Of a stretch of 64,000 bases of DNA, positions 6,001 through 43,796 are shown in pieces. The notes under the pieces were generated by a model. It was not told where the DNA came from, ran no database searches, and saw nothing but the letters and a program-made list of their open reading frames with translations. The stretch comes from a virus (Duplodnaviria > Caudoviricetes). The translations under genes were made by a program, and so were the position numbers. Each line of letters begins with the position of its first letter. Within the stretch, counting starts at the first letter, position 1. The stretch is taken from IMG/VR virus record IMGVR_UViG_3300042868_009047; one strand, given 5' to 3'.

Positions 6001-6390
6001 TATACCACCAATTTTTAATATTGTGTGTATTGGTAATTCAACTAATCCTTGTGTTGTTTTAAAAGCTGTTCTTAGGAAAGATGTATCCAAAAAACCAAAA
6101 GAACCAAAATTTGATTCACATTTGATGGTATTTAAAAACATTTGGCCGCTTTTAAAAAATTTACCAGTGGTTGTTTCTTTAACCATGTTTTGTGCAAAAA
6201 TAGCGTGATTATTCACACCAGCATCTAGCATAGTATTTGGGTATGCGTTAGTATCTTCTAATTCTTTTCTGAGTGTTAAAAAAGTTCCATCAATAGTTTC
6301 CCCTGTAACACTACTCATCATAGCGTTTATGTCAATATCAGTATTTGATATATATCTTTTATCTAAAAAATTTTGATTATATGATGGCAT
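1..6390 (-). CDS. Giant baseplate hub / tail-associated lysin-like protein, >2130 aa, 3'-truncated by the window edge (absent from the ORF track)
   Basis: ATG at 6390 (MPSYNQNFLDKRY...). The frame stays open to base 1 in by-eye translation and spot checks. It contains the hub motif SLGNAGIQPLTYFYVKNVPLFYGSYWITNVSHKITPNNMTTTFKGVRQ (~1830-1995). It ends ...GWVDPLKSITIGSGYGN, resembling the start of an M23 peptidase domain. Confidence 0.8.
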   Translation of the reverse strand, partial: MPSYNQNFLDKRYISNTDIDINAMMSSVTGETIDGTFLTLRKELEDTNAYPNTMLDAGVNNHAIFAQNMVKETTTGKFFKSGQMFLNTIKCESNFGSFGFLDTSFLRTAFKTTQGLVELPIHTILKIGGIYDFYYYNDYEKDTKIDLDIVNGLKTNNGYDLFDDPIVKNKHYGTYVFDDKNLILATAPFVKPITPRHIDDSIGNGSDSFSKTNISKNYKEKYYDYNYGLELSLNNNISSHMPFSGYGVLNNYMNSMSHFFFGEGLDGGTDITDTRNNNGIPYHIIGNFKGNLKTFKTYNDTQINFLASYNNYGTKIQHDLNGLKAALDTLTKTITLDTNFVFSKSPKKTEFFLMLSKIKANYLGGYIATDYLYTVIKDLCTVNNLKAKSNDVPLSDFAALLIHLLFYPDGAEKDSRRPNKTVRVLSLYDVDPNSFTNVVEYETNTLYTTIDFLLFILGETQEKQHEQVSKLLLSLWTKEFNTEKGSRLSPLDKQGTYVVYPSCGGEINIKELFSNKNHTYHKTNNVSTFIETPDLSNSYVTGLTTSSFTNTDTDGKYYDNISNDTLSALNFDYKTFYGNLPNNISINNPFTEFLNLKGLVSTLKYSQKNTVPKSIPDNDNFFLSRYNQSLYGLGLITTNITNPMVTSNLDRYDDLYIIANTTDPSGVKELYFDNRTLINNTSKLFWFDQTRNVFPYTEIYRSQNGEHLKDIKVVDNREVAQYGYGDNVKQLYEWGDPLDAESNLWIYDYSKFEKDRTFYFDGYKSDIDIYIDIFGVDKLEDFRALFKNFVDKDTKNYFTEAFNTFNFQSLIKHTNIFGYTHLPDSVTLDRVYTKEEISAFLCGYSGDFIEFASKNDVSKIINYALTIGQENKAKIVIDEFMNAKITINNYSTTGPLYVDNTGDNPEGLRLNSNIFNPIIMYASETRTADSIISKLDYRLLFRTLLFGDQPISPYDVKTIPDNFNTLVDKYLDVWRLRVVNPELRKTLLPELTRLFFSTLNIEITEGNFKLLLTYLKSYINNFGILSGGKYTTGVIFLANRNATIFPSAEGAVDKEFDYTIDDFIITNKVIGGVLTKVGEVKYEFNTIDDLKPVDKLKEFIDYTNKNILTKQIEAFNTGLKKFSELTKSKIDGVSTLKDSNSVDEYEEDLDKGEIERRTGTYYRIKTLYDRSVSFNNIDLNDSRLIKKRSKDLATINVSDILNHPLFFNFNIETDDTDYENCIDKKLSADKSLIDGKLKDLYDYASVLDRGNNDYGTKVLANIDALKKVIADDLTNVTQVENTLRSKSMWSVLSTLASDHEFLLLPLTSYVNLNGAVKNSKDPFEVAHDMFGVFNNLEMFDSNPAFIFQLGSLTSNVSAGNKQKKNSLSEFDLSNTFCMDIETTQLGPDGRGKILDEGIPNDIVNSNVSSFIVDFGNKNQNMFQNIQLSTDEFANTEESIYTQVSLTSSDNITQLSSGKLFTAMENRSYSCTVTSLGNAGIQPLTYFYVKNVPLFYGSYWITNVSHKITPNNMTTTFKGVRQPISKKPTANTSILQQLLKTAQANAEAAGYIDPNSRLQVPTSGQVYAYNNRETNGTDNEYGIFSQATTANPGLYVNYSGLWVTAAYLRLMTNGDQNNKLLIKALIAYLYNNAYTLSGSSDPATAIKYFMDIVLYDMSVKLGVDTSLYNLLSEYSTVNTAYEEILSEFAKTTLEGGDNNVFKYLEHDQPLTGIKTTLITTAAGGVIAEDATATITGITITYPSDIEIPSTHSNESKNDFIGSAYWVSDKPANNFTELQGFSRYRLTNDVFKTKGSVPSKINPSLLNLLKNNPGDQFVDFDAASITGIKTDQKYFAVVKYLNSATNRYEAIDAQYNGVSGYQIIKSPVNNSRSYYGNNPLQGSDGTYFKSGVQPSTIPTNSGTIKERYSTFYVGNNGVKPQIIVNGLKFQNTTEMIVEVYTPYVTTDGYPIVTTDRDNIGVINNLGIYKKIGTYNNYKTGYLDNNDSVPVVLGFGTATGTTQSQNTNGKLKYLTTYGDPFIPTGELSGSTQYQADVLGAISNGNSYISFIAIGLEDQIKSKIVLERTVRSYINKDVLGTKEFPKAYTILDKDITSKEIYIPPTKKLSNGKKTKVSGWVDPLKSITIGSGYGN

Positions 6391-6393
6391 CTT

Positions 6394-9348: not shown

Positions 9349-9658
9349 AATATTCTACCCTGTTTTTTAATTTTGTTTCATATTCCTTTAAAGTATCTTG
9401 CAAAGGGTAAGGTATTCTAAGTGTTGTGTTGTCGGGTATTTCCCATTCACTAGGTGCCACATCTGGGTTCGCCATTAAAATTAACCAACCATAATATGGT
9501 GCAGAATAATATTGTTGACTAATTTTATCCAACCTACTTTTACCCGTATTATAAACAGTGAATAAATCGGTTGTTTTTTCAATCAATTTAATAAACGGTG
9601 GGGATATGTGCTTTGAATCACTATCTAACGTTTTATATCTATTAAAATATCTAGCCAT
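9341..9658 (-). CDS. Baseplate wedge subunit, T4 gp53-like / LysM-tail X fold
   Basis: RLDKISQQYYSAPYYGWLILMANP...IPDNTTLRIPYPL motif; small size; position in the baseplate operon. Confidence 0.8.
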   Translation of the reverse strand: MARYFNRYKTLDSDSKHISPPFIKLIEKTTDLFTVYNTGKSRLDKISQQYYSAPYYGWLILMANPDVAPSEWEIPDNTTLRIPYPLQDTLKEYETKLKNRVEYYG

Positions 9659-9666
9659 ATCAATAA

Positions 9667-12600
9667 TTAATTATAAAGCTCTGGGTAAAGCATTGCCAAT
9701 TGTGTTTCGGTGTTTACTTTAATCGATTCAGCCTCGTTTGTTGAACATATATTAATAATAGGTTCATTTTTATATTTTGTAAAGAGTTTTAAGTTTTTAA
9801 TGATCGTACTGTCTAGTTTACTTGTCTCCCTGAATGTAACCGTATAATCGTCAAAATTACCCTTAATTAACTTATTTTTTATTTCAAATTTGTCTAATAC
9901 TTTAGCTGAATTATTAACACCAAAAATATTTTTATTTATATTTTTTATGGTGTTATCATTCAGGTTTGATGTATAGCTAAGCACATCAGCCAAATCAGAG
10001 TCGTATTTTTTAACAAAAGTTTCAATAAGTTTGAACGCCCCCTCAATTGATTTTTTAATTTTAACCGTTTGGTCTTTTTTGTATTTATCAACCCTTATTG
10101 GGTTATTCTTAATACTTGCTGGTGGGTTGATACCAGTTTTTTCTATTTTAGCCATAATAGCTTCAATATGAACTGATTTACTCACATATAAGTTATATAA
10201 AAATTCTATAAATAAAACATCTTGCATTGCTGACATTTTTACGGTTTCACCATATGTTATACCAGTTGTTGTACCGCTTGTAGATCCACTGACAAATCCG
10301 TTTAATTTAAACTTTTGCTGATCTGGTAGTGAATTTACGTATTCCTCTGTTATGGTATAATCATACATCATTAAAGTATTAAGATTTTTTAATTGTGTAT
10401 TTAATGTAGTCCCTGTTAAATTAGGGTTATTTTCGTTAAATAAATAATAATTTATATCTTTTATAAAGCTATTTTGTGAATTGGTTTTCTTATTTAAACC
10501 GTAGTAAAATAAAACATCTGAGGTTGTTACACCACTTGTTGAACCCGTTGGGTTTAAAGTTACACCAGTTAAACTATTAATTTGTAAATCAAGCTCATAG
10601 TTTGGTGTATAAACTAAATCAATATCATTGTTTTTAGTTTCAGACTCATCTGATAACATAAACTCTAAAGTTTTATTACTAAAATCTAACAACTCATAAT
10701 TAATTTTTTCAAACGTGTATTTCATTTGATACTCACCTTGTTGGTAAACATTATTTGCTGTATTATTTACAATATTACTACTATCTCTACTAACCAATGC
10801 GTATGATGTTGTTTCCAAAGATCTAGCGCTTGAGCTAGTACCATACTCATAAGGGTTAAGTGAGAAATTCTCGTCTGTTGGGTTTCCGCTTACCGCTGGA
10901 TTTATTTGACCAAATTTAAAGGTGTTTGCTGTTGAAATTGACGCTGTTAAATTATTATTCGTTGGTAAGAAATTATCAAAATCATATTGATTTGGTAAAT
11001 CACCAACAGTGGTATAACCAAACACTTTACTAATATAGGTCATATTTCTTACATACTCTTTAATAACACTATCAGATGTTGTGTTATTTAAATTGTTTTT
11101 AAGTTGTTTAAAGAAATACATACCGTTACCAAGTGATGCGTATTTATTTATTGTGAAACCACTTGTTTGAATACCGTTCGCTTCAGTTAAAATACCATAA
11201 ACATCACTTAAACTAATTAATTCACCACCATCTATCGATAGTTTTTTGTATTTTTCGTATGGGTTGTAACCAAACATGGTACTACCAGTAACTGGTGTGC
11301 TTAATTTTTTAGCGTTAGGTATTACTTCGTATAATTTAGCCCTACCTTCTGAAAGCGTTGCATCGTAACCATACAATGGTAACGATAAACCAGCCAATAT
11401 AACCGACATTCTTGCGATTGAATCGTTTAACGCTGTTATTGTTGAATCGGTGTCAGAATCTCTCTTAGAATAGAATGAAACAAATTGTGTATCAATATAA
11501 CTAGTAAAATCTTTTATGTGACTAGTTTCCAGATTTTTATAAAAGTTTTTAAACCCTTTTAAATTATCTGTTGTATCAAACCAAAAACCTAACGTGTTTG
11601 TCGCAATTTTTGTTCTAAACTCATTGACAAAATTAGATTCAATATCCTTATATATTTTTATACCGTTTGTGTCTCTAAAGAAAATACCACCAGTTTCAGA
11701 ATTACCATCTACATTGTTTGTATAACCGTTTGTAAAGTTACCTTGGAAATATTTGCTACTTCTACCGTTATTAGTTGCACCTGTTAAAGCTGTGAAATTA
11801 TAAGGTAAACCTTTACCGTCACCAATTTTAAACATGTACTCTTGTGGATGTAAATTTAATTTTAAAGCCTCAAAAGGTTCTTCTTTATTATTATTTTTAC
11901 TTAAAAAGAATGGGTGATATTTAAACACATCACCAAGTCCAATATATCTTCTTTCATTAGCAACGGTGTTAAAAATTTCGGAATAAGTTAAACCACTAAG
12001 ATTTGTGTTTGGTAATGTTGTACCAGATATATTACCGATTATTTCACTAATGGTTGTACCAGTAGTTGATAAAGGTTTTTTATAGTTTTTATTTTTTAAT
12101 ACGTTATTAATTACCTTATATTTACCAATTGTTTTGTCTTCGGTTTTACCTATGTAATTAGCAAAATTATTTACATAATCACCAAAGCTATAATACAACT
12201 CACTAAATAGGTCATAATATTGTATATCATATCTTTGTAAGTATAATCTACCGTATTCTTGTCTAAATGCAAATTCACCAAAATTAGAGTGGTCTATTGC
12301 TGTCCAAGTTGCTGTGTCTGTTGGTAATGTTTTAGTATATAAACCATCTGCTATCGGGTATTTTACGTTTTTTCTAACATAGTATTGACCTTGGTATGTA
12401 ACACATGTTTCCGCTATGTACTCTTTTGTTAGGTCAAATGTTGCTGCACCAGTTAAATTATGGTAATACGTACCACCAGCCAATTTTGGTAACAATCTCT
12501 CACTAATAACCCCAATAGTACCATAAGGTATTGGTAAACCTTCTGTTGAAGGTGTTATTAACTCAGCTGCCGCAACGATTGGTATTAAATCCAACGAATT

Positions 12601-27273: not shown

Positions 27274-30200
27274 TTATATATTATCAAATAGTACGTTTTG
27301 TGGAGTTACTGTAAATTCAAGTTCAATGAATTCCAAAGTAGGTGTTGGTTTGATAAAGATTTTACCTTTTAAAGTATTTCTATCGTTATCTTCAACGTCC
27401 ATCGCAACGCTAACTCTAAAGTCTGTTAAACCTCTTTCTTTTCTAATGTTATCCAAAATTGGGTTAACCAATGACAAGAATTGATTTCTAACTGTGGTAT
27501 CGTTTGGATCAAATAATAATCTCTTAGATACACTCATAATCAATCTTCTTGCTTGTAATAACAATCTTCTAATGTTAAGTCTATCAAGAGCGCTTGATTT
27601 AATTTGCAAGTTTCTGTTACCCCAGATAACAACACCAATGTCTGAATAAGTTGCTAATGGGTTAATTCTTCCTGGATATAAAACATCTCTAGCTTCTTGA
27701 TCAAGAACAATACGAGCTCTATTACATTTTACTAAACCTCTATTGTAACCAGCAGTTGCAAACCAAGGGAACGCTACGTTATCAGTATAAGCCATATTTC
27801 TTACTACCTCAGCAGTAGGTGGAATATACAAGTTTGCGTTATTCTCTGTATCTGTGATTTGAATCCAAGGGTAGTAAACCGCAGTGTAGTTAGAATCAAT
27901 ATCAGTGTTTTCTAATTCACTAACGATATCTTCAGCATAGTACCAACTTTCAGTATCTGAAGGGTTGTTATTGTTTAACAACTTGATATCAGGTAATGTT
28001 GGTAAGTAAATAGCATCCAATCTCTTCTCTTCAACAACTTCAATAGCGTCTCTAACCAAGTCAGTATTATTTAACACGTCAATACCAGGTGTAGCCAAGA
28101 TATTGATAGCTGTTTCTTCAGGGTTTTGGAATGTTTTGATACCATACATTGTAGCGTAGTAATCAGAAGTACCGAATAATTCAGCGTATTCAACGTTTGT
28201 AAATGTATCAAATGTACCAGCTACGAAACCAGTTCTACCGATTTTATAATCATCCGTATTCGTTCTGTTAACTCTATATTCATCCCAACCATCAAAACCA
28301 CCAGAAAATAACGTTGTGAATTTTCTTGTTCTCATGTTATTATATGGGTGAGTTGATGTTCCATCAACAACGATAGCATCAACGAATGAAGCAACACCAA
28401 CAGCAAAAACTTGTTCACCAGTTACGGAATCAATAACACTGCTTGCGTTAATATCCATGTGGAAACCTTTTGTTTTAGTTGTGTAATCATCACCAGTATT
28501 ATAAGCGTTATCACCTATTGTGCTGATCTTACCTTTGAATAACAATAAATCTCTATCAACACCAAATTGACTTGAGAAACCTAAGTAATGTTTTCTTATT
28601 ACATCACCACTAGAAACCGTAGCATTAGCAAATGGTGGGTTGTAAATCGTATCACCAGGTGCATAATATTTAAGTTTGTATGGTATTTCTGGAACAGCTG
28701 TTGCTGTGTAACCAGTTAAAGCGTTTGTTCTAAATTCATAACCTTCGAAACCAGCTGGAACACCATCTGTAGGTGCGTTTATAGCCATTTCAAGTACAAC
28801 GTAAGAACTCTTAAGTGGGTATTTGTTATCAATTGTACCGATTTTTCTACCAACAAAGTTATCCAAACTTTCATCCATTGTACAATCAACAAATTTTTCA
28901 AGTATAGAAACGTTTGCATCGGTATCACTGAATAATCTAACGTAGATATCAAATGTTTTCTTAGATAAGTCAACATTAGTGATTGAAGCTTTAATTTCAG
29001 TATTAGCGTTAGCACCATCAGAGATTGAAATTAATCTAAACAATCTTTGTGGTAAACCACCTCTTAATTCAGATACAAAGAAAGGTGTTACAGGTGATTG
29101 ATATTGGAATCTATAGTGATCCCAGTTATTAACAGATGTTAATTCACTGTATAAACCTTTAATTTTACCGTTTAATCTACCAAATTTTAAAGAAGCATCG
29201 TAAACATCCTCAACATAGATATAAGAATCTTTATTGTTAGGTGTTGTACCAATTACTTTTTTAATGTAGTTAGATTTTGTGCTATCTAAAGAAACTGTGT
29301 ACGTAAATGTGCTACCAGTTGGGTTTGCGGTTGTACCAGTTAACTCAAAAGCTAAATAAGGATCATTAACAATGTCTGCTGGAGCAACCATATCTAATGT
29401 ATTAACTTTATAACCTAATATATCTGAAGTATAAGTACCTCTGCTTCTTATAGTAGCAACGTTTTTATTGTGACCATCTATAAATGGATCAACCGTTAAA
29501 TCAACATTGAATAACTCTAAAACACCATTAATTTTTTGTGCACCAGCAGATGTAAATGTATGACAATATAAAGCAAATGAAGGCCCGTTATATGTTTGAG
29601 TGGCTGTGTTATACGCTAACTCATTGTTTAATATAAAAGCATCTCTATCAGCAGTTGGAACACCAAATGGTAATTCATATGCATCAATGTAAGTTGGTGT
29701 TAAACTGTTTGTGGCTGCATCAACTGTTAAATCAGTGTCCATATCATCGGTCAAAAGACCCCAATATAAAGCGTTACCAATATAAAAATCTTGTGTGTTA
29801 TAACCACCGATACTTGTGAAGAATTGATTAAATACTGTATCAAAATCAGTTGCAGCAACACCAGTTGCGGTAGCAATATAATCAATTAAATCTGTGTTAC
29901 CAGAACCACCAGTAATATAGAAAGTATTATCATCAGTATCAAATTGAAAATTAATTGTTGTTTGAGTAACACCAGTATGTGTTAACGTTGACTCATCACA
30001 CGCACCTAATGTTTTAATAACCCAAGCCATACCAGCATCGTAGCCAGATAAACCCAAAAGTCTTGTTACATACATTTGGTTTGATTGTGTTAAATACTGT
30101 TTTGCTATGTATGGTAATTCATACTTTACAATTTGTGTATTTTTAAATTTTTCTGGATTAGTACCACCAAAAGTAGTCTTAAATTCATCAAAATTTCTGA

Positions 30201-30339
30201 TGAACATTGGTTGGAACGCTGGACCCTTTAAGGTTTCACCCACTACACCTAATGTTGTAACACCAACTGTCTCAGTTGTAAATGTTAAATCTTTTTCGGT
30301 TGTGTAGACACCTGGAGACGCATAAACTTTGTTTGCCAT
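27274..30339 (-). CDS. Tail sheath protein (T4 gp18-like, 1021 aa)
   Basis: N-terminal YASPGVYTTEKD and GETLKGPAFQP. C-terminal INILATPGID, YYPWIQI, PWFATAGYNRG, RINPL, WGNRNLQ, LDRLNIRRLL and IFIKPTPTLEFIELEF. Confidence 0.97.
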   Translation of the reverse strand: MANKVYASPGVYTTEKDLTFTTETVGVTTLGVVGETLKGPAFQPMFIRNFDEFKTTFGGTNPEKFKNTQIVKYELPYIAKQYLTQSNQMYVTRLLGLSGYDAGMAWVIKTLGACDESTLTHTGVTQTTINFQFDTDDNTFYITGGSGNTDLIDYIATATGVAATDFDTVFNQFFTSIGGYNTQDFYIGNALYWGLLTDDMDTDLTVDAATNSLTPTYIDAYELPFGVPTADRDAFILNNELAYNTATQTYNGPSFALYCHTFTSAGAQKINGVLELFNVDLTVDPFIDGHNKNVATIRSRGTYTSDILGYKVNTLDMVAPADIVNDPYLAFELTGTTANPTGSTFTYTVSLDSTKSNYIKKVIGTTPNNKDSYIYVEDVYDASLKFGRLNGKIKGLYSELTSVNNWDHYRFQYQSPVTPFFVSELRGGLPQRLFRLISISDGANANTEIKASITNVDLSKKTFDIYVRLFSDTDANVSILEKFVDCTMDESLDNFVGRKIGTIDNKYPLKSSYVVLEMAINAPTDGVPAGFEGYEFRTNALTGYTATAVPEIPYKLKYYAPGDTIYNPPFANATVSSGDVIRKHYLGFSSQFGVDRDLLLFKGKISTIGDNAYNTGDDYTTKTKGFHMDINASSVIDSVTGEQVFAVGVASFVDAIVVDGTSTHPYNNMRTRKFTTLFSGGFDGWDEYRVNRTNTDDYKIGRTGFVAGTFDTFTNVEYAELFGTSDYYATMYGIKTFQNPEETAINILATPGIDVLNNTDLVRDAIEVVEEKRLDAIYLPTLPDIKLLNNNNPSDTESWYYAEDIVSELENTDIDSNYTAVYYPWIQITDTENNANLYIPPTAEVVRNMAYTDNVAFPWFATAGYNRGLVKCNRARIVLDQEARDVLYPGRINPLATYSDIGVVIWGNRNLQIKSSALDRLNIRRLLLQARRLIMSVSKRLLFDPNDTTVRNQFLSLVNPILDNIRKERGLTDFRVSVAMDVEDNDRNTLKGKIFIKPTPTLEFIELEFTVTPQNVLFDNI

Positions 30340-31834: not shown

Positions 31835-33613
31835 ATGCAGTTACCCATAGAAAAGAGAGCGCTGGATATATTAAAAACATATAAAGGGTCAAATGATTAT
31901 ATATTGGGTATACAAAACACATACTTTACGAGTAAAAGTTTTATACCAACAAAAAACCAAAGCGATTATGTTATTAAAAACGGTAATGTTGACCCTGTTG
32001 TCGTTAATAAATTATTCGATATAAGTAAATCTTGTAGACCTTTTATCGCTGAACAATTAAAATTAGATTTTATACCAGATAAAATATTCATTAATAAATT
32101 ACTTAGTAGAAAAGAAAATTTTTTACATATTTACGGTTGTTTTGAAGAAGGTTGTGACCAATACTATACATTTTACATTTCAAAAGAGTGTGTAAAAGTT
32201 AGTCGCCCTGAACCAGAAATTGACCCAACAAAGTATGAAAGGGATCCAAAACCACATCAAATAACAGCAATTAAAAAATTATTGACAAACGATAAATTTA
32301 TATTGGCTGATGAAATGGGTCTTGGTAAAACTACATCCGCTATCATTGCGGCCATAGAAGGTCAATTTAAAAAAATATTGATTGTTTGTCCAGCATCACT
32401 TAAACTTAACTGGAAAATTGAAATTTCAAACTATGATTCCCCAGATAATATTAGCGTTGTTGACGGAAGTAACCTTACTGTAAAGAAATGGACAATCGTA
32501 AACTACGATATTCTTAAGAATTTTCACCATTTACCTAGACGTGGTGTTAAGACAGCTGATTTACCCGTGTCACCAATTGATTACCATAAGTTTGATTTGG
32601 TAATTGCGGATGAAGCTCACTACCTTAAAAACGCTGCGTCAAACAGAACTAAGATCTTTAATGATTTTGCAATGAAAATACCAGTAAGGTGGTTATTGAC
32701 AGGTACACCAATCACAAATAAACCGATTGATTTCTATAATCTTTTGTATTTGTGTGATTCACCTGTTGCTTCTAACTGGGTTGGCTATGTTAAAAGATAT
32801 TGCGCTGGTAGACAATTCAACCGTAAAGGTACCAAACAAAAGTATTGGGTTTGTTCAGGATCTTCAAATCTTGAGGAATTAAAAGATTTCTCTGCTGATG
32901 TTATCTTAAGGAGAACTAAGAGTGATTCTATTGATTTACCACAAAAGACTATTAAACCTGTATATCTACCATTGGAATTCTCAACCAGTTACAACGCTTA
33001 TATTGATGAATATGAAGCTTGGATTGAGGAAATGGAAGCGGCTGGTGAAAAACCAACAATTACAGATCACTTAACAAAACTTATTAAAGTTAGACAATTA
33101 TTATCCTACGATAAAATAGCCCACACAATTGAAATGGCTGAAGAAATGCTTGAGAATGATCAAAAGGTAATTATCTTTAGTTGTTTTACAAACACAATTA
33201 AAGAATTGCAAGCTCATTTTGGTAAAAAGTCAGTAACGATTGACGGGTCTGTTTCAAAAGAAAAAAGACAACAAGCTGTCGAAGCATTCCAAAATGATAA
33301 CAACATCAAAGTTTTTTTAGGTAATATTGTTGCGGCTGGCGTTGGTTTAACACTTACTGAAAGTAGCGTTGTAATATTCAATGATCTGGATTGGACACCA
33401 GCTAACCATATGCAAGCTGAGGATAGGGCTCATAGAATTGGTCAACAAAATCAAGTCCATATTATATACCCATTGTTTGCGGACACTTTAGACATGATCA
33501 TGTATAAAGCACTTCAAAGTAAAATGAAAATTATTAGCACGATTATGGGTGATAACCCATCAGAAGAACAAATTTCTGTTGGTAAAGAAGTTATTATGCA
33601 CCTTAGACGTTAA
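31835..33613 (+). CDS. SNF2-family (SMARCAL1/HARP-like) helicase
   Basis: ILADEMGLGKT (motif I), IVCPASL, ADEAH (II), LLTGTP (III) and QAEDRAHRIGQ (VI). Confidence 0.95.
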   Translation: MQLPIEKRALDILKTYKGSNDYILGIQNTYFTSKSFIPTKNQSDYVIKNGNVDPVVVNKLFDISKSCRPFIAEQLKLDFIPDKIFINKLLSRKENFLHIYGCFEEGCDQYYTFYISKECVKVSRPEPEIDPTKYERDPKPHQITAIKKLLTNDKFILADEMGLGKTTSAIIAAIEGQFKKILIVCPASLKLNWKIEISNYDSPDNISVVDGSNLTVKKWTIVNYDILKNFHHLPRRGVKTADLPVSPIDYHKFDLVIADEAHYLKNAASNRTKIFNDFAMKIPVRWLLTGTPITNKPIDFYNLLYLCDSPVASNWVGYVKRYCAGRQFNRKGTKQKYWVCSGSSNLEELKDFSADVILRRTKSDSIDLPQKTIKPVYLPLEFSTSYNAYIDEYEAWIEEMEAAGEKPTITDHLTKLIKVRQLLSYDKIAHTIEMAEEMLENDQKVIIFSCFTNTIKELQAHFGKKSVTIDGSVSKEKRQQAVEAFQNDNNIKVFLGNIVAAGVGLTLTESSVVIFNDLDWTPANHMQAEDRAHRIGQQNQVHIIYPLFADTLDMIMYKALQSKMKIISTIMGDNPSEEQISVGKEVIMHLRR

Positions 33614-34828: not shown

Positions 34829-35920
34829 ATGAGAATAAATCCAATCGAAAAGCAAAAAATATACAAACAAGCTAAACACAGACTTGGTGCCCCTATTAGA
34901 AAGATTCAATTAGAGGATGAGCAAATGGACTCTCTTCTTGAAATCGCAACAGAAGATTATGTTGAGTTTATTAACAACTGGTTAATTGAACACCAATGGC
35001 CAAGTTTGATTGGTTTAAGTGTTAGTGAGGCTGACCTAACAAGGGCTTTTATTTATAGAAGCTTTGATTTGGTTACTCAATATACCTATTCTTACTCAAA
35101 AATCGTTGGTTTAGGTGCTGGTGAAGGTGGTTATGTACTTAAAAAAGACTATGTTGAATTATCTAAAGGACAACAAATATATGAAATTCCAGCGAATAGG
35201 GAAATAAATGAGGTGTTATGGTTTACCCCAGCTTCTTTAGATCAATCTGTAATTGACCCATTCTTAGGTGTTTGGAATAATCAATTTGGTGCCGAATACA
35301 TGGGTTTAGGTAGTTATTATATTCTACCAGCCTTTGATATCTTAATGAGAACAACGGATAGAAACCTTAAAAATAGAATGATTCGCTCTGAGTTAATATA
35401 TAAGATTACGAATGCACCTGATGGTAAAAAATATCTTCATTTAATGAATACCCCAGGTGGTAAGTTTGATTTTAGGGGTTCAATGCTTGACCAGGGTAAA
35501 TGTTGGTATTGGTATTACGATATTAACCCATTAATTAAAGACGATTGTTTAGCAAAAAACAAAGATATTATTAAATCACCTTCTGATGTTCCGTTGGATA
35601 ATATTTCATTTGATGATTTAAATGATCCAGCTAAAGTTTGGATCAGAAGATATTTTATTGCATTATGTAAAGAAACTTTAGGTAGGGTAAGAGGTACATT
35701 TGGTGGTAAAATACCAGTTCCAGATGCAAATATGGAAATTGAATACCAATCGCTTTTATCAGAAGGTAAAGATGAGATGGTTACACTTAAAAAAGAATTA
35801 GAGGATAGAATGTTTAAATTAAATCCAATAGAAATTCTTAAGAGAATGTCTTCTGAGGCTGAAGAAATTAATAAAGCCCTTAAATTTAGAGCATTCCAAA
35901 AACCAATTAAGATTATATAA
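34829..35920 (+). CDS. Neck / head-tail adaptor protein (gp13-like), likely start 34829 (MRINPIEK)
   Basis: HRLGAPIRKIQLEDEQMDSLLEIA and WIRRYFIALCKETLGRVRGTFGGKIP..LLSEGKDEMVTLKKEL. Confidence 0.8.
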   Translation: MRINPIEKQKIYKQAKHRLGAPIRKIQLEDEQMDSLLEIATEDYVEFINNWLIEHQWPSLIGLSVSEADLTRAFIYRSFDLVTQYTYSYSKIVGLGAGEGGYVLKKDYVELSKGQQIYEIPANREINEVLWFTPASLDQSVIDPFLGVWNNQFGAEYMGLGSYYILPAFDILMRTTDRNLKNRMIRSELIYKITNAPDGKKYLHLMNTPGGKFDFRGSMLDQGKCWYWYYDINPLIKDDCLAKNKDIIKSPSDVPLDNISFDDLNDPAKVWIRRYFIALCKETLGRVRGTFGGKIPVPDANMEIEYQSLLSEGKDEMVTLKKELEDRMFKLNPIEILKRMSSEAEEINKALKFRAFQKPIKII

Positions 35921-37620
35921 TGTTTTATACAGCCCTAGATAATAGTGATTATTTTGATTTAGTTGTCACAAAAGATTGTCGTGATTTTTATCGTAATTAT
36001 AGTGAATGTAATTTAATAAACATTAATATTACTGAAGATCTATGTTCAACCCCTGGGAGTGTTCAAACAGAAGAAGTTGAATTAAAGAATATAACCCTTA
36101 CTGGTTATGATAACTTTTTTATACATAATGGTGAAATATCTAACATTAATAATTTCACTGGTGATACAATAGGGTATACGGTTAATCAAGATATTGTTAT
36201 TGATGTCGATAAAAATTTAACATATGTGGTCGAGACTGGGGATACATTCTGTTTTCATGAAATATCAGGTTATAGTGGTAATTATTGTTATGAGATCGAT
36301 CATTTAAACCTTGATAACGGTGTTTACTACAACAAATTAAACGGTGGTTTTTACCAAGGCTTTTATAAAATATTTGGTGAGAACGTTGAATGGTATCCAG
36401 CCAGAGCAAAAATGGGTTGGACCGTTGACATGGTTGTTCATTTTCCTATGGACGTAACAGGTTCAACTGGAACTAGTGGTACTTCAGGAACATCTGGTTC
36501 TTCTGGATCTAACGGTACTAATGGAACTATTGGTACTTCAGGAACATCTGGTTCTTCTGGGTCTAACGGTTCTTCAGGATCTAACGGTACTAATGGCACT
36601 TCAGGAACATCTGGTTCTTCTGGATCATCAGGGAGTTGTGTAACTTTGAACGAGGTTTACCCAAATAATAGTGGTTTTATTTTTTATTTAGGAACAAGAG
36701 CTGAAAATAAATTTGCTGATAAGACTGACATTGAGATACAAAAATTTGAAAATAACTATGAAATCTTACCGTTAAACACAACAAACTTATTCACCTATAA
36801 TAATTTAATAAGTTTAGATGGTTTAACCAATTACATTGGTTATTTTAACTATTATAATGGTTTAATGTATACTGGTAGAAATTACACAACAGATTCTCAA
36901 CCTTTACAATATCATCAGGAATATAGCGATTTAACTTATAATGCATTTGGTATAAGAGTTACCAATGATGGTAGAATTGGTTATAGAACAATATACCCAA
37001 CTGACATATGTTACACTGGGGCGACACAAGAAGTAAGCGGTATAACAAACAACTCATTTATAATGGAACCCGATGATCCTTGTGTTAGTCATACAAAAGC
37101 TCTTATTATTACAAAATACTTTACCATTGAAGAATGTTATACAAAAAAACCAGTTATCAATGTTAATGAAAAAAAGTTTTTAAATATAACTGGAGTGTTT
37201 GAAAGGGATTTTGGATATGGTGATAATTGCCAGTTAAAATACGGTGACTATAAAAAAGGAACCTTCTCAATTTACCTAAACGGATTTCTAGTTTTTAGAA
37301 ATAAAAAATTTGTTGAGGTTATACCACATGAATTAGATACCGATGCGAAATACCAAGAAGGTGTACCGTTTAATATTTCATTTGGTGGTGGTACCCAAAG
37401 TTTAATTGATGCTGTTGTGTTTGATAAGACAAAAGTACTTGGTACCGTTTTAGAAAGATTTTTTGCTGGAACATTTTTAGGTGGTGTTAAATCATTTAAA
37501 ATGTATTGTGTACCTTTGTATACTGTTGAAGTTAAAAAAGAACTTAGAAGTATTGCAGGTATATATAACTTACCAATAATAAACGGTGGAAGACAAATAT
37601 TTATAAAAAACCTATTCTAA
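35920..37620 (+). CDS. Virion structural protein with a Gly-X-Y (Gly-Ser/Thr) repeat and a lectin/LamG-like beta domain
   Basis: 19 G-X-Y triplets followed by the beta-rich GFIFYLGTRAENKF...GTFSIYLNG...QEGVPFNISFGGGTQSL region; follows the neck gene. Confidence 0.6.
   Translation: MFYTALDNSDYFDLVVTKDCRDFYRNYSECNLININITEDLCSTPGSVQTEEVELKNITLTGYDNFFIHNGEISNINNFTGDTIGYTVNQDIVIDVDKNLTYVVETGDTFCFHEISGYSGNYCYEIDHLNLDNGVYYNKLNGGFYQGFYKIFGENVEWYPARAKMGWTVDMVVHFPMDVTGSTGTSGTSGTSGSSGSNGTNGTIGTSGTSGSSGSNGSSGSNGTNGTSGTSGSSGSSGSCVTLNEVYPNNSGFIFYLGTRAENKFADKTDIEIQKFENNYEILPLNTTNLFTYNNLISLDGLTNYIGYFNYYNGLMYTGRNYTTDSQPLQYHQEYSDLTYNAFGIRVTNDGRIGYRTIYPTDICYTGATQEVSGITNNSFIMEPDDPCVSHTKALIITKYFTIEECYTKKPVINVNEKKFLNITGVFERDFGYGDNCQLKYGDYKKGTFSIYLNGFLVFRNKKFVEVIPHELDTDAKYQEGVPFNISFGGGTQSLIDAVVFDKTKVLGTVLERFFAGTFLGGVKSFKMYCVPLYTVEVKKELRSIAGIYNLPIINGGRQIFIKNLF
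36460..36636 (+). repeat. Collagen-like (G-S/T-S/N/T)19 low-complexity repeat
   Basis: GSTGTSGTSGTSGSSGSNGTNG...; three copies of acttcaggaacatctggttcttctgg. Confidence 0.95.
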
Positions 37621-38021
37621 TGATATTCAGTATAAGACAAAACGCGACATTACCTATTTTGAAAATGAAAGTTTTCAGAGATGGCCGCAACGATTTTAGA
37701 CGTTTCGAAGAGTTAATCGAAAATTGTGTGGTAACATTTGCCATGAAAGATGAAAAAACTGGTATATACAAAGTTGCAAATAAAGCGGCAAATGTTGTAC
37801 TTGAAAATCCTTGTGACGAAAATGGTTACAAAAACTATATCATAACATACCAATTTACAAAAGACGATACCGACAAACCTGGGGTGTTTCTTGGTGAATT
37901 TAAATTAACCTTGTTTGATCTAGCCGACCCAACTGAAGTTTATGGTGAGTTAATAGCACCAATTCAAGAGGAATTATACATACACATCCTCGATTCATTC
38001 GTAAAAACAGATATTATTTAA
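37620..38021 (+). CDS. BppU N-terminal-like Ig-fold structural protein
   Basis: FSIRQNATLPILKM...ITYQFTKDDTDKPGVFLGEFKL; late motif at 37598-37605. Confidence 0.6.
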   Translation: MIFSIRQNATLPILKMKVFRDGRNDFRRFEELIENCVVTFAMKDEKTGIYKVANKAANVVLENPCDENGYKNYIITYQFTKDDTDKPGVFLGEFKLTLFDLADPTEVYGELIAPIQEELYIHILDSFVKTDII

Positions 38022-38075: not shown

Positions 38076-41000
38076 ATGGCCGAATACAAAATTTCCCTTG
38101 AAGAAATAGAAAAATTTTTAAATGGACACAATGATGAGAAATACATTGTGAATGTTGAGTACGATGCCGAAACTAATCTAATCCATAAGGTTAAACAAGA
38201 TCCTGAAAGAGGTAACTATGTCGAAACAGAACCGTTACTCGCTTTCATGTGGATTAAAAATCTTAATAAGATTAAGGAATTAACCAATTTTTATGGTAAT
38301 AGCGATTCAAAGATTAAATCTGCTAGACAAAGATTTGGTATTGAAATTAAATCTTTAGGTGGTGATCACCCAAAACTACTTGAGGGTTATAGATACTTGG
38401 TCACTTGTAATCAAGGTAATAAAAGAATGTTAGATTTCTTCAGAGAAGGTGGCATCTATGTCTATGACACAAGAAACGATATTAGATCACACTTTTTAAT
38501 GATATCACCTGTTGAACAATACTTTATACACACTGGTAAACGTTTGTTTAAAGGGTATGAAGAATATGATGATATTCATAAATTTATATTTGACTTAGAG
38601 ACAACAGGTTTAGATCCACATATCAATAGGATATTTTTGATTGGTGTCTATACTAATAAAGGTGTTAAAGAAATTATACCAGTTGAGGATGATGATGAAT
38701 CTGAAAGACAAGCAATTACAAAATTCTTCGAGGTTATTAATGACATTAAACCAACAATTATTGCTGGTTATAATAGCGCTAACTTTGACTGGGATTTCTT
38801 TTTTGTTCGTTGTCAAAAACTTGGATTAAATATTCAAGATATAGCTATAACACTTAAACCAGGTGAGCTTATCCAAAGAAAAGAAAAAAGCGTACTTAAA
38901 CTTGGTAATGAGGTGGAAGAATATACACAAACTAATATGTTTGGTTATAGTGTTATTGACATTATCCACTCAGCTAGGCGTGCACAAGCAATTGATTCAA
39001 GTATGAAGTCAGTTGGTTTAAAGTATGTTTGTAAGTATAACAAGATTGCCAAAAAGAATCGTGTTTACATTGTTGGTGATAAAATTGGTAATACATGGTA
39101 CTCAAAGGATAAATTCTATTTTGACGATAGAACTGGTTCGTACACTAAAACAAAACCAGCTTTAGAGTTTATGGATTACATTCGTAGAGAAGACATCCAA
39201 GCTAATCCAGATAAAATATTTGTTTTTGGTGATAACATGACGAGGCAAGGACTTGGTGGTCAAGCAAAAGAAATGCGTGGTGAACCAAATGTTATCGGTG
39301 TTGTAACAAAACATTCACCAGAATCAACACCTGAATCTTATTTTAATGACAAAGATTTTGATTCCATTAAAAAATATATTGATACTGATATTAATCAGAT
39401 AATTGAAAAGATTAAAGAAGGTAAAACTATTGTGTTCCCTAAAATGGGTATTGGTACAGGTTTGGCTCAGTTAGATATGAGAGCACCAAAAACTTTTAAA
39501 TATCTAATAGATTTATTACGTGCATTACGTGATTATATTAACACCTTCCAAGAAGTTGACGGTAAATATATTGTTGAGCGTTACTTGGTTGATGATTTAT
39601 GGGAAACCATGGAAGTTGATGCCGTTTATAATCAATCATCATTCTTGTTGGCTAAATTGGTACCGACAACGTACCAAAGGGTATCGACCATGGGTACAGC
39701 TGGGTTATGGAAGTTATTGATGATGACATATTCATTTGAAAATGATTTAGCGATACCTGTATCAGATGTTAAAAGAGATTACACGGGTGGTTTATCAAGG
39801 TTATTTAAAGTTGGATACTCAACCACTTTAAGAAAGATGGACTACAATTCACTATACCCAGCTATTCAATTGGCTCATGATGTATTTCCGAGTGTTGATG
39901 TTAACGGTGCAATGAAATCGATGTTAAAGTATTTCCACACTGAACGTTTTAACGCTAAGAAATTATCTGACAAGTACAAAAAAGAGGGTAATTACCAATT
40001 AGCTGACAAATATAAACGTAAACAGTTACCACTTAAGATCTTTATTAACTCGATGTTCGGTGCCCTTGGAGCACCAATGGCTTTCCAATGGGCTGAAATT
40101 GATGTCAGTGAACGTATTACATGTACGGCAAGACAATACCTTAGACTGATGGTTACATTTTTTGTTAAACGTGGTTACACACCTTTGGTACTTGATACGG
40201 ATGGTGTGAACTTTATGGCCCCTAAAAACGGTGAGCACTATACATATATTGGTAAAGGATTAAACGATGAAGTTGAAGCTGGTAAAGAATATACAGGTGT
40301 TAAAGCTATAGTCGCTGAATTTAACGATACGTACATGCGTGGTGAGATGGGCCTTGGTTTGGATGGTATTTGGCCAGCAACCATAAACCTATCAAGAAAA
40401 AACTACGCTTTATTAGAAGATGATGGATCAATTAGTTTAACTGGTAATAGTATCAAGTCAAAAGCTATGCCTGTTTATATTGAGGAGTTTTTAGCTAAAG
40501 GCATGAAAATGTTATTAAACGGCCATGGTTATGATTTTGTTCAATATTACTATGAATACGCTGAAAAGGTTTATAATAAAGAGATACCGTTAGCAAAAAT
40601 TGCCACAAAATCTAGAGTTAAGAAATCAATAAACGCTTACATAAATCGTGGTGGTGATAAAAATGGCAGACAATTGGCTAAACAAGCTCACATGGAGTTA
40701 GCGATTAAACATGATATTGATGTTAATCTTGGTGATACAATTTATTACGTTAATAACGGTAAAACAAAATCGCATGGTGATGCTCAAGAAGATAAACACG
40801 GTGAAATGTACGCAACATTAGTACCAAATGATATTATTGAGAACCAACCAGATTATATTGGTGAATATAACGTACCAAAATATTTGGAAGCCTTAAATAA
40901 AAAGGTTGAACCGCTATTAGTTGCTTTCTCTCTTGATGTTAGAGATAAAATTTTAATTAAAAAATCTGGTGAAAGAACAATGTTCTTAAGATCTGAATTA

Positions 41001-41177
41001 GATTTAGTAAATAACCAGCCAACCGATATTGAAGACCAAGACACCTTGGAAGAATTTTTCACACCATCCCCAATGGAAAAAGAATTCTGGGCTAAAATGA
41101 AATATGAATCTGATTATTGGTTTTCAGATGAAATAAGATTTAAAATACCTGGTCTAGATGAAGAATTTACGGTTTAG
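38076..41177 (+). CDS. polB: Family B DNA polymerase with an in-frame ~125-aa domain insertion in the exonuclease domain
   Basis: ExoI FDLETTGLDP, ExoII GYNSANFDW and ExoIII YLVDD; PolA MDYNSLYP, PolB KQLPLKIFINSMFG and PolC LDTDG. Confidence 0.97.
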   Translation: MAEYKISLEEIEKFLNGHNDEKYIVNVEYDAETNLIHKVKQDPERGNYVETEPLLAFMWIKNLNKIKELTNFYGNSDSKIKSARQRFGIEIKSLGGDHPKLLEGYRYLVTCNQGNKRMLDFFREGGIYVYDTRNDIRSHFLMISPVEQYFIHTGKRLFKGYEEYDDIHKFIFDLETTGLDPHINRIFLIGVYTNKGVKEIIPVEDDDESERQAITKFFEVINDIKPTIIAGYNSANFDWDFFFVRCQKLGLNIQDIAITLKPGELIQRKEKSVLKLGNEVEEYTQTNMFGYSVIDIIHSARRAQAIDSSMKSVGLKYVCKYNKIAKKNRVYIVGDKIGNTWYSKDKFYFDDRTGSYTKTKPALEFMDYIRREDIQANPDKIFVFGDNMTRQGLGGQAKEMRGEPNVIGVVTKHSPESTPESYFNDKDFDSIKKYIDTDINQIIEKIKEGKTIVFPKMGIGTGLAQLDMRAPKTFKYLIDLLRALRDYINTFQEVDGKYIVERYLVDDLWETMEVDAVYNQSSFLLAKLVPTTYQRVSTMGTAGLWKLLMMTYSFENDLAIPVSDVKRDYTGGLSRLFKVGYSTTLRKMDYNSLYPAIQLAHDVFPSVDVNGAMKSMLKYFHTERFNAKKLSDKYKKEGNYQLADKYKRKQLPLKIFINSMFGALGAPMAFQWAEIDVSERITCTARQYLRLMVTFFVKRGYTPLVLDTDGVNFMAPKNGEHYTYIGKGLNDEVEAGKEYTGVKAIVAEFNDTYMRGEMGLGLDGIWPATINLSRKNYALLEDDGSISLTGNSIKSKAMPVYIEEFLAKGMKMLLNGHGYDFVQYYYEYAEKVYNKEIPLAKIATKSRVKKSINAYINRGGDKNGRQLAKQAHMELAIKHDIDVNLGDTIYYVNNGKTKSHGDAQEDKHGEMYATLVPNDIIENQPDYIGEYNVPKYLEALNKKVEPLLVAFSLDVRDKILIKKSGERTMFLRSELDLVNNQPTDIEDQDTLEEFFTPSPMEKEFWAKMKYESDYWFSDEIRFKIPGLDEEFTV

Positions 41178-41221: not shown

Positions 41222-41794
41222 ATGAACACTAATAAAGATATAAACGAATTTATTGATGCAGATGGTGATATAATTAGTGGTGATAAAAAATACATTAATT
41301 ACGTTAACACCACTCATGATACAACTGATGCTACTATTTTAAAAACTAGACAACCGTTTGTTTTTCAAAACTATAGAAGATATTACGGTGAATCTGTATT
41401 ACCTTTTAATAACGAAGCAGATTATTGTAAAAGCAACCCTAAGAAATTCTATGAATTTTTGGGTAAAAAAGGTATGGAACATACTTTTGAGGATTATTTT
41501 ACTGAAGTAAAACAAAGAAAAGATGTTAAACCTGTCATTGACCCCAAAGATAAATTAAAAGAAATTGCCAAAGAAAAAGCGTTTAAAATGCTTGAGGATC
41601 TTATTTCAAAAAGAACGGACAATGATTACCTTATTTCAAAGAATATGCCAACGAGTATAGAGGAAGTTAAAGATAAAGAAAAATTGCTTTTTGATAAATT
41701 TGACAAAATTCTTGAATTTTTTAAGAACAACTTAAATGAAGGTGAGAAAAAATTATTAATGTCTTATTTTGAAGACTCATTAAAAAATGGATAA
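41222..41794 (+). CDS. Hypothetical protein (190 aa)
   Basis: Intact ORF with a late motif upstream; first of a tightly packed cluster. Confidence 0.7.
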   Translation: MNTNKDINEFIDADGDIISGDKKYINYVNTTHDTTDATILKTRQPFVFQNYRRYYGESVLPFNNEADYCKSNPKKFYEFLGKKGMEHTFEDYFTEVKQRKDVKPVIDPKDKLKEIAKEKAFKMLEDLISKRTDNDYLISKNMPTSIEEVKDKEKLLFDKFDKILEFFKNNLNEGEKKLLMSYFEDSLKNG

Positions 41795-42281
41795 AAATTC
41801 AAAATTATATGAGGTAAATTCAAAACTTATCGGTATGACTTATGACATACCAGATGAGGTTTTGATTCATATTAAAAATACATTAAAAAAATTTAAAGAC
41901 CACAAAACAGTTAAAGGTTATAAAAGAGCTAATTTTTTGGTGAATAACCCAAATCAACCGTATGTTAATTTAGCTATGATTAAATCATATTTTGATAACG
42001 TAAATAAAGATGAGGTTAATCCAGTTGAATACGCTTTAAACGGTGGTGATGTATTAAATGTTTGGGTTCAGGATCTCATAAAAAGAGAAAAAGAAAGAGT
42101 TCAGGGTAATAAAGTTGCTAGGACAAATGCTGGTATGAACGGTCAGTTTAGAAAAGATTCTGAAGGGGATGATTTTAATACCGATTTACCAAATAACGTA
42201 ATGGATACGCCAGACATAATGTTTAATAGCGCATTACTTGAAGATATAACTAGAATAAAAAAATTAATAAATAAAATATAA
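41787..42281 (+). CDS. Hypothetical protein (164 aa)
   Basis: Overlaps the upstream stop; C-terminal LLEDITRIKKLINKI motif. Confidence 0.7.
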   Translation: MDKNSKLYEVNSKLIGMTYDIPDEVLIHIKNTLKKFKDHKTVKGYKRANFLVNNPNQPYVNLAMIKSYFDNVNKDEVNPVEYALNGGDVLNVWVQDLIKREKERVQGNKVARTNAGMNGQFRKDSEGDDFNTDLPNNVMDTPDIMFNSALLEDITRIKKLINKI

Positions 42282-42283
42282 TC

Positions 42284-42547
42284 ATGGCAGATAACATTTT
42301 AAAAGTACCAGCATCCACACAATTAAGACAGGTTGCTGATCAAGAACTAAACGGTAAATTAATACCAGTTAATGAGTATAAACCAAACTCTTTTGAGTAT
42401 AGCTCAACAAACCCTAACGCACTTAGTGGTGACGCTAAGGGTAAAGGTGATATCGGTAACACCACTGATGTTGAAGAAAGATCAAAATTGGTTGCTGTTA
42501 ACAATTATAAAGACAGTAATACATATCCAGATTCATCTGTAGTTTAA
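42284..42547 (+). CDS. Hypothetical protein (87 aa), possibly structural
   Basis: Tightly packed ORF, rich in N/S/D/T. Confidence 0.65.
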   Translation: MADNILKVPASTQLRQVADQELNGKLIPVNEYKPNSFEYSSTNPNALSGDAKGKGDIGNTTDVEERSKLVAVNNYKDSNTYPDSSVV

Positions 42548-42559
42548 TTTTTTTTATTT

Positions 42560-43195
42560 ATGCTTATTATTGAAAACACAAGTGGTAACAAACTCGACAT
42601 ATTAAAATACGCAATTGAAAATAAATATTCAATTGTATTTTGGTATAGAGGTGTTAAACTAGGTGACCCAAATGAAAAAGGTTATACACGCCAAAATTAT
42701 AGACGTGTTGAACCCGTGGCTTTGGGTAAAAGTGATAAAACAGGTAAAGACATGTTAAGAGCTTTTCAATATAATGGTGCGACAAATACTAAAAACCAAG
42801 TTTATAAAACATTTATTGTAGATGAAATAAAAGATGGTAGTATACAAATGGTTTACGATTCAACAGGTAAGCAATTAAGAACCTTTGATACTAATAACCA
42901 AAGATATACAGATAAAAACGGAAATAGCGCTGAATTTAGGTCAAATGGTAATGATTTAAAAATGGCTTCTGGTAGATCAGAAAAATATGTAGATACTAGC
43001 AAACCAGCTGGACCAACAGACCCTAAATACGCTAACATGAATTATAAAGAACCAGAAATAAAAAATAAACCAGAACAAAAACCAGTGGAACCCCAACCTC
43101 AAGGACAAAATGTCCCTGAGAACCCAAATGACAAAGAGGTTGTAACTGAACATAGTTCTGGATTCTTAAAATGGATATATAACATATATGGATAA
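42560..43195 (+). CDS. WYL-like domain protein
   Basis: AIENKYSIVFWYRG...YRRVEPVALG...MLRAFQ...YKTFIVDEI resembles the WYL SH3-like pattern. Confidence 0.55.
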   Translation: MLIIENTSGNKLDILKYAIENKYSIVFWYRGVKLGDPNEKGYTRQNYRRVEPVALGKSDKTGKDMLRAFQYNGATNTKNQVYKTFIVDEIKDGSIQMVYDSTGKQLRTFDTNNQRYTDKNGNSAEFRSNGNDLKMASGRSEKYVDTSKPAGPTDPKYANMNYKEPEIKNKPEQKPVEPQPQGQNVPENPNDKEVVTEHSSGFLKWIYNIYG

Positions 43196-43796
43196 TCAAG
43201 ATAAAGCAGCGTTATTAGCACAAGGAATTGCTAAAGCAAGAATAGTAATGGAAAAAGTTGAAGCCAATACTGGCGGTAAAATGGCACAAGATAGAGGTAT
43301 GTCGGGCATGAATAGAGAAGTTTATTCAGACAACTACCAAGAACGTGAACCAGAATATTTAACCGAAGAGCAAGTTGCAGCTAGAACAAGAAATGCTGGT
43401 GGTGGTGTACCTAAAAACACTATGAAAAACCTGTCATCATCAAAAATGCCTAAAGAAATACTACAGTCGTTCATCGATAATCCGATTGTTGACCCAACGG
43501 TACCAGTTGGTATGGATAATTTAATGGAGCAAATCGCTAAAGCACAACCTAAAATTAGACAAATTGATGAAGTTGTACAACCAAGATCAGTTGCACCAGC
43601 TCAATCAGCCCCAGCTTTAACAATGGATAGGGAGTTAATTGAATACATTATCAAAAAAACCGTTGAGACTGTTCTTGAAGAACAAGCTAAAAAAACTAGT
43701 ATTGATGAGAATTTTCAAATTAAAATAGGTGACAAAATATTTGGTGGTAAATTAAATGTTTTAAAAGAAAATAATAATAAATCAGTTAAAAAGTAA
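43188..43796 (+). CDS. Hypothetical protein (202 aa)
   Basis: SSKMPKEILQSFIDNPI and ENFQIKIGDKIFGGKL; overlaps the upstream ORF. Confidence 0.7.
   Translation: MDNQDKAALLAQGIAKARIVMEKVEANTGGKMAQDRGMSGMNREVYSDNYQEREPEYLTEEQVAARTRNAGGGVPKNTMKNLSSSKMPKEILQSFIDNPIVDPTVPVGMDNLMEQIAKAQPKIRQIDEVVQPRSVAPAQSAPALTMDRELIEYIIKKTVETVLEEQAKKTSIDENFQIKIGDKIFGGKLNVLKENNNKSVKK

Follow-up and report, generated by a model that had tools for sequence, protein, structure and literature searches.

A DUF7831 domain that appears catalytically intact is built into the exonuclease domain of a phage family-B DNA polymerase (PolB). The polymerase is encoded in the window, that is, the whole stretch of 64,000 nucleotides analyzed from virus record IMGVR_UViG_3300042868_009047 (Duplodnaviria; Caudoviricetes). 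Its gene occupies positions 38076..41177 (+) and encodes 1033 amino acids (aa), of which aa 363-488 (39162..39539, +) constitute the inserted domain. DUF7831, an alpha/beta module of only ~120 aa, usually exists as a protein on its own in phages, giant viruses, and mobile elements. The insert is tentatively read as a polymerase-tethered eraser of DNA adducts of the adenosine diphosphate ribose (ADP-ribose) type, which would do the work of the phage proteins AdfM and AdfN from a different protein family. That kind of function is already known from AdfM and AdfN; the DUF7831 family and the polymerase architecture are new.

The identity of the insert is far beyond chance, given a full-length match to Pfam family PF25176 (DUF7831; E 3.7e-44, scoring 149.8 bits where the gathering threshold is 27 and spanning positions 2-117 of the 118 in the profile) together with a match to phrog_2072, a PHROG of unassigned function, in a PHROGs search. 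The Pfam match covers aa 364-479 (39165-39512). An earlier sequence-only reading, whose quoted PolB peptide and coordinates are exact letter for letter, had described residues ~363-488 as a self-contained alpha/beta domain, and the Pfam match and the structure model below bear this out. NCBIfam has no family for the insert, and PADLOC returned no match for it or for four stand-alone DUF7831 members. A profile search of PDB sequences yielded only an insignificant match to a triosephosphate isomerase loop (E 0.16). Furthermore, no additional Macro, DarG, or DUF7831 copy was found in a six-frame scan of the window with purpose-built profiles.

Invariance within the family was computed over 47 DUF7831 members and is concentrated in three blocks: strand-FGDN-x4-G.GGQA..MRGE.N, strand-TK..P, and strand-P..G.GTGLA.L...AP. 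The first block corresponds to a strand and glycine-rich loop, FVFGDN..GLGGQAKEMRGEPN (aa 382-405, 39219..39290, +), a predicted ligand or catalytic site in which F, G, D, N, G, G, Q, M, R, G, E, and N are invariant. The second is the strand VIGVVTKHSP (aa 406-415, 39291..39320, +), ending in an invariant lysine followed by a proline (K55 and P58 of the family invariant, T54 present in at least 90% of members). The third comprises a strand and the second glycine-rich loop, VFPKMGIGTGLAQL (aa 453-466, 39432..39473, +), with P, G, G, and G invariant and T, L, and A present in at least 90% of members. The window insert retains all 21 of the family-invariant residues. An AlphaFold2 model of the isolated insert, built from 47 sequences, has a predicted local distance difference test score (pLDDT) of 94 and a predicted template modeling score (pTM) of 0.87. 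It contains four main strands alternating with helices, and the two invariant glycine-rich loops follow strands 2 and 4, each at the C-terminal end of its strand.

The host protein is a family-B polymerase with proofreading, carrying motifs ExoI-III and A-C with their acidic residues and matching both Pfam (DNA_pol_B_exo1, RNase_H_2, DNA_pol_B) and PDB entries, the latter being archaeal PolB structures found by phmmer; it also matches phrog_262 (DNA polymerase). Key-residue invariance was judged on an alignment of 41 relatives. ExoI is FDLETTG (aa 172-178, 38589..38609, +), with D173, E175, and T176 invariant. ExoII is GYNSANFDWDF (aa 231-241, 38766..38798, +), which aligns to ExoII of Pyrococcus abyssi PolB and has an invariant D238. 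ExoIII is YIVERYLVDDLWET (aa 498-511, 39567..39608, +), which begins nine residues past the insert, aligns to archaeal PolB ExoIII, and has invariant Y503 and D507. Polymerase motifs A (DYNSLYPA), B (KIFINSMFGALG), and C (VLDTDGV) lie within 39840..40208 (+), and their catalytic residues D589, D707, and D709 are invariant. The polymerase thus looks fully functional by its motifs, and the placement of the domain between ExoII and an intact ExoIII, as originally proposed, holds. ExoII and ExoIII are 243 residues apart in the window polymerase versus 74 in Pyrococcus PolB.

The AlphaFold2 model of the whole polymerase (mean pLDDT 89, pTM 0.79) includes the insert at pLDDT 88-92 and without floppy linkers. 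The C-terminal helix of the insert (aa 471-488) passes through a strand of three to four residues into the ExoIII helix (496-518) with high pLDDT, and the junctions are modeled with confidence (block pLDDT 88-94 at the same pTM). The insert is therefore, in the model, apparently packed rigidly on the exonuclease domain.

Comparison with related polymerases identified the segment as an indel, as had been anticipated. Relatives lacking it (a large group of 919-948 aa, ~55% identical in the best local alignment, which covers about half of the query, and two of 1067 aa) miss ~115 residues exactly at this site with the flanks aligned. An intact insert is present at the same site in PolBs down to ~50% identity. 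A further class (P0185-P0187, P0201, P0203-P0206) carries a degenerate insert of similar or shorter length from which the conserved motifs are gone.

No intein Pfam family was found on the window polymerase, in agreement with the sequence-only reading, which had noted no intein termini. The GC content of the insert equals that of its flanks, and no meaningful flanking repeats were detected. Contigs from other lake samples pass through the insert without a joint, as does a 4.8-kb contig from an RNA library representing a strain ~9% divergent; the RNA libraries cover small shares of the stretch only and may contain DNA. An intein or mobile-intron reading was rejected on the absence of intein domains, compositional shift, flanking repeats, and any joint in the DNA- or RNA-library contigs. 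A lone joint at 39886-40182 was set aside; its sides are short and lie in the conserved polymerase core, and it was taken to come from other organisms. One relative, P0173 (1392 aa), carries an intein (LAGLIDADG_3, Intein_splicing) at a different place in the protein, along with a DUF7831 insert with a lowered score (51 bits). Many metagenomes of lake water from 2018 to 2024 (runs X1-X20) contain the polymerase gene in almost identical form, indicating that the phage is a persistent freshwater population.

In order to follow the history of the insert, a PolB tree was built with the insert columns removed and a Salinibacter phage PolB as root; this root sits on a long branch, which makes it unsure. 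Of the four main PolB clades, three contain intact inserts. Polymerases lacking the insert are nested within the tree, one group being sister to an intact form and another sister to a degenerate form. When the DUF7831 domains themselves were placed in a tree, those inserted in PolBs grouped into one clade of 32 rows (support 96) and another of six rows. Taken with the identical insertion site, the trees point to a single old capture, after which the insert degenerated independently at least four times and was cleanly lost once or twice. The capture, in an ancestor of the uncultured myovirus lineage to which this PolB belongs, placed DUF7831 in a loop of the 3'-5' exonuclease domain immediately ahead of the ExoIII helix. 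All 21 family-invariant residues are kept in 51 of 84 long PolBs, the window copy included. Among relatives only 21-27% diverged (P0128-P0137), five to eight of the 21 are changed, glycines of the glycine-rich loops among them. Judging from such decay and loss, the module is dispensable for polymerization and has been under on-and-off selection, a pattern typical of accessory counter-defense functions. The insert is accessory to the polymerase and not a core part of it. A natural series is visible at one PolB site, from intact through half-decayed and fully decayed to excised.

Beyond polymerases, DUF7831 has 714 matches among proteins of similar size, and an exhaustive profile search returned ~2,640 clusters (50% identity), of which 665 fall below 1e-30. 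Stand-alone occurrence, which the earlier reading had suggested looking for, proved to be the rule: most members are free phage proteins of ~120-135 aa, for example in phages of Caulobacter, Rhizobium, Ruegeria, and Rhodobacter, at no more than 50% identity to the insert. Bacterial genomes with DUF7831 include Pyrinomonadaceae, Hymenobacter, Methylobacterium, and Dehalococcoidia. According to BFVD models, giant viruses of amoebae (Tupanvirus, Hyperionvirus, Yasminevirus) also carry DUF7831 proteins, and the domain lies inside ~1,400-aa proteins of crAss-like phages; the family therefore crosses the boundary between prokaryotic and eukaryotic viruses.

The domain partners of DUF7831 tie it to the biochemistry of nicotinamide adenine dinucleotide (NAD) and ADP-ribose. 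Atlas clusters combine it with DUF4326 and with the SLOG domains YAcAr and cpYpsA, and a Pfam scan of multidomain representatives yielded the combinations DUF7831 with cpYpsA, with DUF4326 and NADAR, with NADAR alone, and with DUF488-N3a; a single protein of 3535 aa unites NADAR, DUF7831, and cpYpsA. In passages of surveys by the Aravind group, phage Macro domains are likewise described as combining with SLOG, NADAR, and the phosphatase-like DUF4326, the last being also fused to components of replication and restriction-modification (PMC9503650, PMC7824862). Giant multidomain DUF7831 proteins of 2,000-6,800 aa were also observed (P0245, P0249, P0252, P0275, P0290, P0337), P0249 with NADAR and cpYpsA.

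Several other contexts are DNA-centered. In Pyrinomonadaceae, the DUF7831 gene directly follows that of an 826-aa MobL/MobA relaxase and precedes genes for a single-stranded DNA-binding protein (SSB) and RNase H; such relaxase-DUF7831-SSB loci were seen in L001-L003, L019, L047, and others, around 3100-10000. From their gene order, these loci look like the leading region of a conjugative element, which enters the recipient first as single-stranded DNA. A protein of 1118 aa (P0292) joins DUF7831 to a P-loop AAA_33 domain, UvrB_inter, and a MuF head-packaging domain and, by this composition, looks like a polyvalent injected protein. Another carries a C-terminal fragment of MutL (MutL_C). Some neighborhoods point elsewhere. 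In phage RcXuper (L114, 2975-5910) and a 271-kb contig, the neighbors are a metallophosphatase and HicA, with a CCA-adding enzyme also present in RcXuper, and the Hymenobacter genes have housekeeping neighbors. A stand-alone DUF7831 gene was likewise observed beside a metallophosphatase and a HicA-like toxin in L050 (5296-7504). The RcXuper and L050 neighborhood may represent an RNA-repair or toxin-related cassette.

Whether DUF7831 is a macrodomain was examined by structure and by profile. In an exhaustive structural search, ~20 of the best 32 rows were macrodomains of many clades, with other folds appearing singly. The best neighbors were DarG relatives; 2afc, Poa1p, and TARG1 also ranked high, and alphavirus, coronavirus, PARP14, PARP9, and MACROD2 macrodomains were among the top rows. 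Among AFDB clusters, one neighbor ranking after the models of the family itself (template modeling score [TM] 0.61, probability 0.99) is named a Macro-domain protein. An alignment of DarG-type macrodomains was built from genomes for comparison by hhalign, which gave P 8e-4 over 34 columns, confined to a helix, a strand, and loop 2 (P..G.GTGLA.L on P.LGCGLGGL). In a low-confidence extension at low stringency, the TK of DUF7831 falls on the PTK of DarG. The spacing of the first loop resembles the TVN-x4-xGxGxA of DarG and AdfM by eye only and without statistical support.

Several results weigh against a macrodomain assignment. The hhalign comparison with DarG macrodomains reaches only 24% probability, and a second, non-collinear alignment places loop 2 of DUF7831 onto loop 1 of DarG; the comparison with a MacroD-type alignment was null (probability 0.2%). 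None of the 47 family members matched PF01661 or other Pfam Macro profiles even at E 10. The PADLOC DarG model likewise gave no match at E 10, whereas small orphan macrodomains score 1e-25 to 1e-38. Foldseek searches of the domain model against PDB and AFDB Swiss-Prot found nothing significant, their weak best rows being CbiL-type methylases, dual-specificity phosphatases, and BioD. The proposal that the loops are macrodomain-like thus stands insofar as there are two invariant glycine-rich loops and the top structural rows are rich in macrodomains, but it finds no Macro or DarG profile match. Likewise, the predicted structural likeness to macro folds emerged from the exhaustive search and not from the Foldseek searches of PDB and AFDB Swiss-Prot. 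On this mixed structural and profile evidence, the domain is termed macrodomain-like, probably closest to the DarG/TARG1 type, and is not filed as a member of the family. A relation of the segment to NADAR, also considered in the sequence-only reading, was not supported, since neither the insert nor the polymerase matches PF08719. A SLOG/LOG-like fold, considered for its PGGxGT motif, was dropped, as no SLOG profile matched the insert and no SLOG structure was among the top 50 structural rows; SLOG domains stand beside DUF7831 in other proteins and not in its place.

DarT toxins ADP-ribosylate single-stranded DNA, halting phage replication, and phages escape them either by mutating the polymerase or by means of the free erasers AdfN (a NADAR protein) and AdfM (a DarG-like macrodomain) (PMC11481870, PMC11825919, PMC13309987, PMC13716836). 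By its fold and fusion network, DUF7831 would hold a group of the ADP-ribose type in the space between the two glycine-rich loops and cleave it with the conserved Asp-Asn, Arg-Gly-Glu, and Thr-Lys residues. In family-B polymerases, the template overhang runs between the N-terminal and exonuclease domains. Fixed to the polymerase, DUF7831 would strip ADP-ribose, or a related NAD-derived adduct, from the single-stranded template at the fork, the adducts concerned being marks laid by DarT-like defense toxins. The fusion itself, read together with the literature, suggests that eraser activity would be placed where the template is single-stranded, and the polymerase-borne eraser would act in cis where AdfM and AdfN act in trans. 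The fuller version of this reading, in which a built-in eraser beside the ExoIII helix strips template marks and DUF7831 at large represents a new, widely distributed family of enzymes with which phages, giant viruses, and conjugative elements de-ADP-ribosylate nucleic acids, is more doubtful.

The same chemistry could be directed at soluble molecules. DUF7831 would then be an NAD/ADP-ribose enzyme acting on an ADP-ribose-derived immune signal or toxic metabolite (cyclic ADP-ribose variants, ADPr-1''-phosphate, Appr>p), and its site in the polymerase would be incidental, fusion to an essential gene securing expression and retention. This is unlikely: in-frame insertion at one site in PolBs only ~50% identical, with a rigid placement in the model, would be odd for mere expression, and the relaxase-SSB, UvrB_inter, and MutL_C contexts of other members are centered on DNA. 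A different chemistry altogether would follow if DUF7831 were not macrodomain-like and had an unrelated Rossmann-like fold, with phosphatase, methylase-like, or nucleotide-sugar activity and glycine-rich loops that arose by convergence. We regard this as rather improbable, given that most of the top structural rows are occupied by macrodomains, drawn from many clades, and that the fusion network is specifically one of NAD and ADP-ribose.

Least probable among the alternatives is an insert that binds a nucleotide or ADP-ribose-like ligand without cleaving it, serving either as a sensor or regulator of the balance between polymerase and exonuclease or as a docking surface for a replisome or host protein. 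Some macrodomains only read their ligand, without cleavage. A scaffold role could outlive the motifs, and relatives with mutated glycine-rich loops or degenerate inserts do retain a folded segment of similar length; the insert moreover rigidly adjoins the ExoIII helix in the model. Set against this are the family-wide invariance of the polar residues D, N, Q, R, E, N, K, and D, which is typical of catalysis, and the whole clades of related PolBs that work without the segment.

Across 8.4 million papers and preprints, the name DUF7831 did not appear. No PolB with such an insertion was described in the parts of the literature covered, in keeping with the earlier reading; the only paper matching macrodomain, family-B polymerase, and phage together, a jumbo-phage survey, describes no such fusion in its passages on Macro, NADAR, SLOG, and DUF4326 (PMC7824862). 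Among INPHARED phages, no polymerase of this architecture was found, the best full-length matches being Salinibacter phage PolBs that are 24% identical and lack the insert. So far the fusion has turned up only in uncultured phages, whose contigs reach 359 kb. To our knowledge, the discovery of phage enzymes that erase DNA ADP-ribosylation (AdfN, AdfM) dates only from 2024-2026, and every one of them is a free protein from one of two known families. If the eraser reading is true, DUF7831 would be a third such family, a large one spanning phages, giant viruses, crAss-like phages, and bacterial genomes, including relaxase-adjacent sites. The polymerase would carry its own template-cleaning module, so that lesion bypass need no longer evolve, and the replisome itself would perform counter-defense. 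Whatever the chemistry, a testable function is now available for DUF7831, a family tightly wired into the NAD/ADP-ribose conflict network, and the series from intact to excised inserts suits the study of module gain and loss.

Elsewhere in the window, genes for a tail sheath protein (1021 aa; 27274..30339, -) and a helicase (phrog_62 'DNA helicase', E 1e-107; 31835..33613, +) indicate a large contractile-tailed phage. The polymerase gene stands between structural genes and a run of open reading frames without known family, and those flanking it (37620-38021 upstream and four at 41222-43796 downstream) matched no Pfam or PHROG family. A 566-aa protein (35920-37620, +) contains a collagen-like Gly-X-Y run of ~59 residues, rich in Ser, Thr, and Asn, at aa ~180-238, and its matches to tail-fiber PHROGs come from this run alone.

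Compared with known systems, the window insert resembles inteins and the split gp43 of some T4-like phages in being foreign sequence lodged in a PolB gene. Unlike inteins, it has no intein domains, is unspliced in the RNA-library contig, and is predicted by the model to form a folded domain of the mature protein. Both structural comparison (TM 0.59-0.60) and language-model features (0.79) single out the phage non-structural protein A1S_2505 as the nearest named family, scores that serve as leads only. It is mostly viral, like DUF7831, and an ADP-ribosylglycohydrolase is fused to some of its members; it stands as a family of its own, with no assigned function. The resemblance to the macrodomains of DarG, TARG1, and Poa1p is below threshold by every sequence method, the DUF7831 model has fewer strands than these, and the DarT-binding C-terminal domain of DarG is absent.

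The NADAR ADP-ribosylglycohydrolases AdfN and DarG1 are phage counter-defense erasers of DNA ADP-ribosylation (PMC11825919). Several multidomain proteins join NADAR domains to DUF7831, although the NADAR fold and family are unrelated to it. AdfM (T4 Tk.4, PhiKZ gp104) resembles DUF7831 in being small, encoded by phages, and of comparable size, with collinear motifs that appear similar by eye (strand-N-x4-xGxGxA, PTK, P..G.G.GL). It is a clear DarG homologue (HHpred 99.7%; PMC13716836), and DarG-type macrodomains were found by tblastn in 1213 phage records. DUF7831, on the other hand, has no Macro or DarG profile match and is ~30 residues shorter between the first two motifs. The AdfM of PhiKZ is imported into the phage nucleus, where phage DNA replicates (PMC13309987). 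AdfM is free-standing, whereas the DUF7831 domain of the window, whose activity is predicted only, is built into the polymerase itself.

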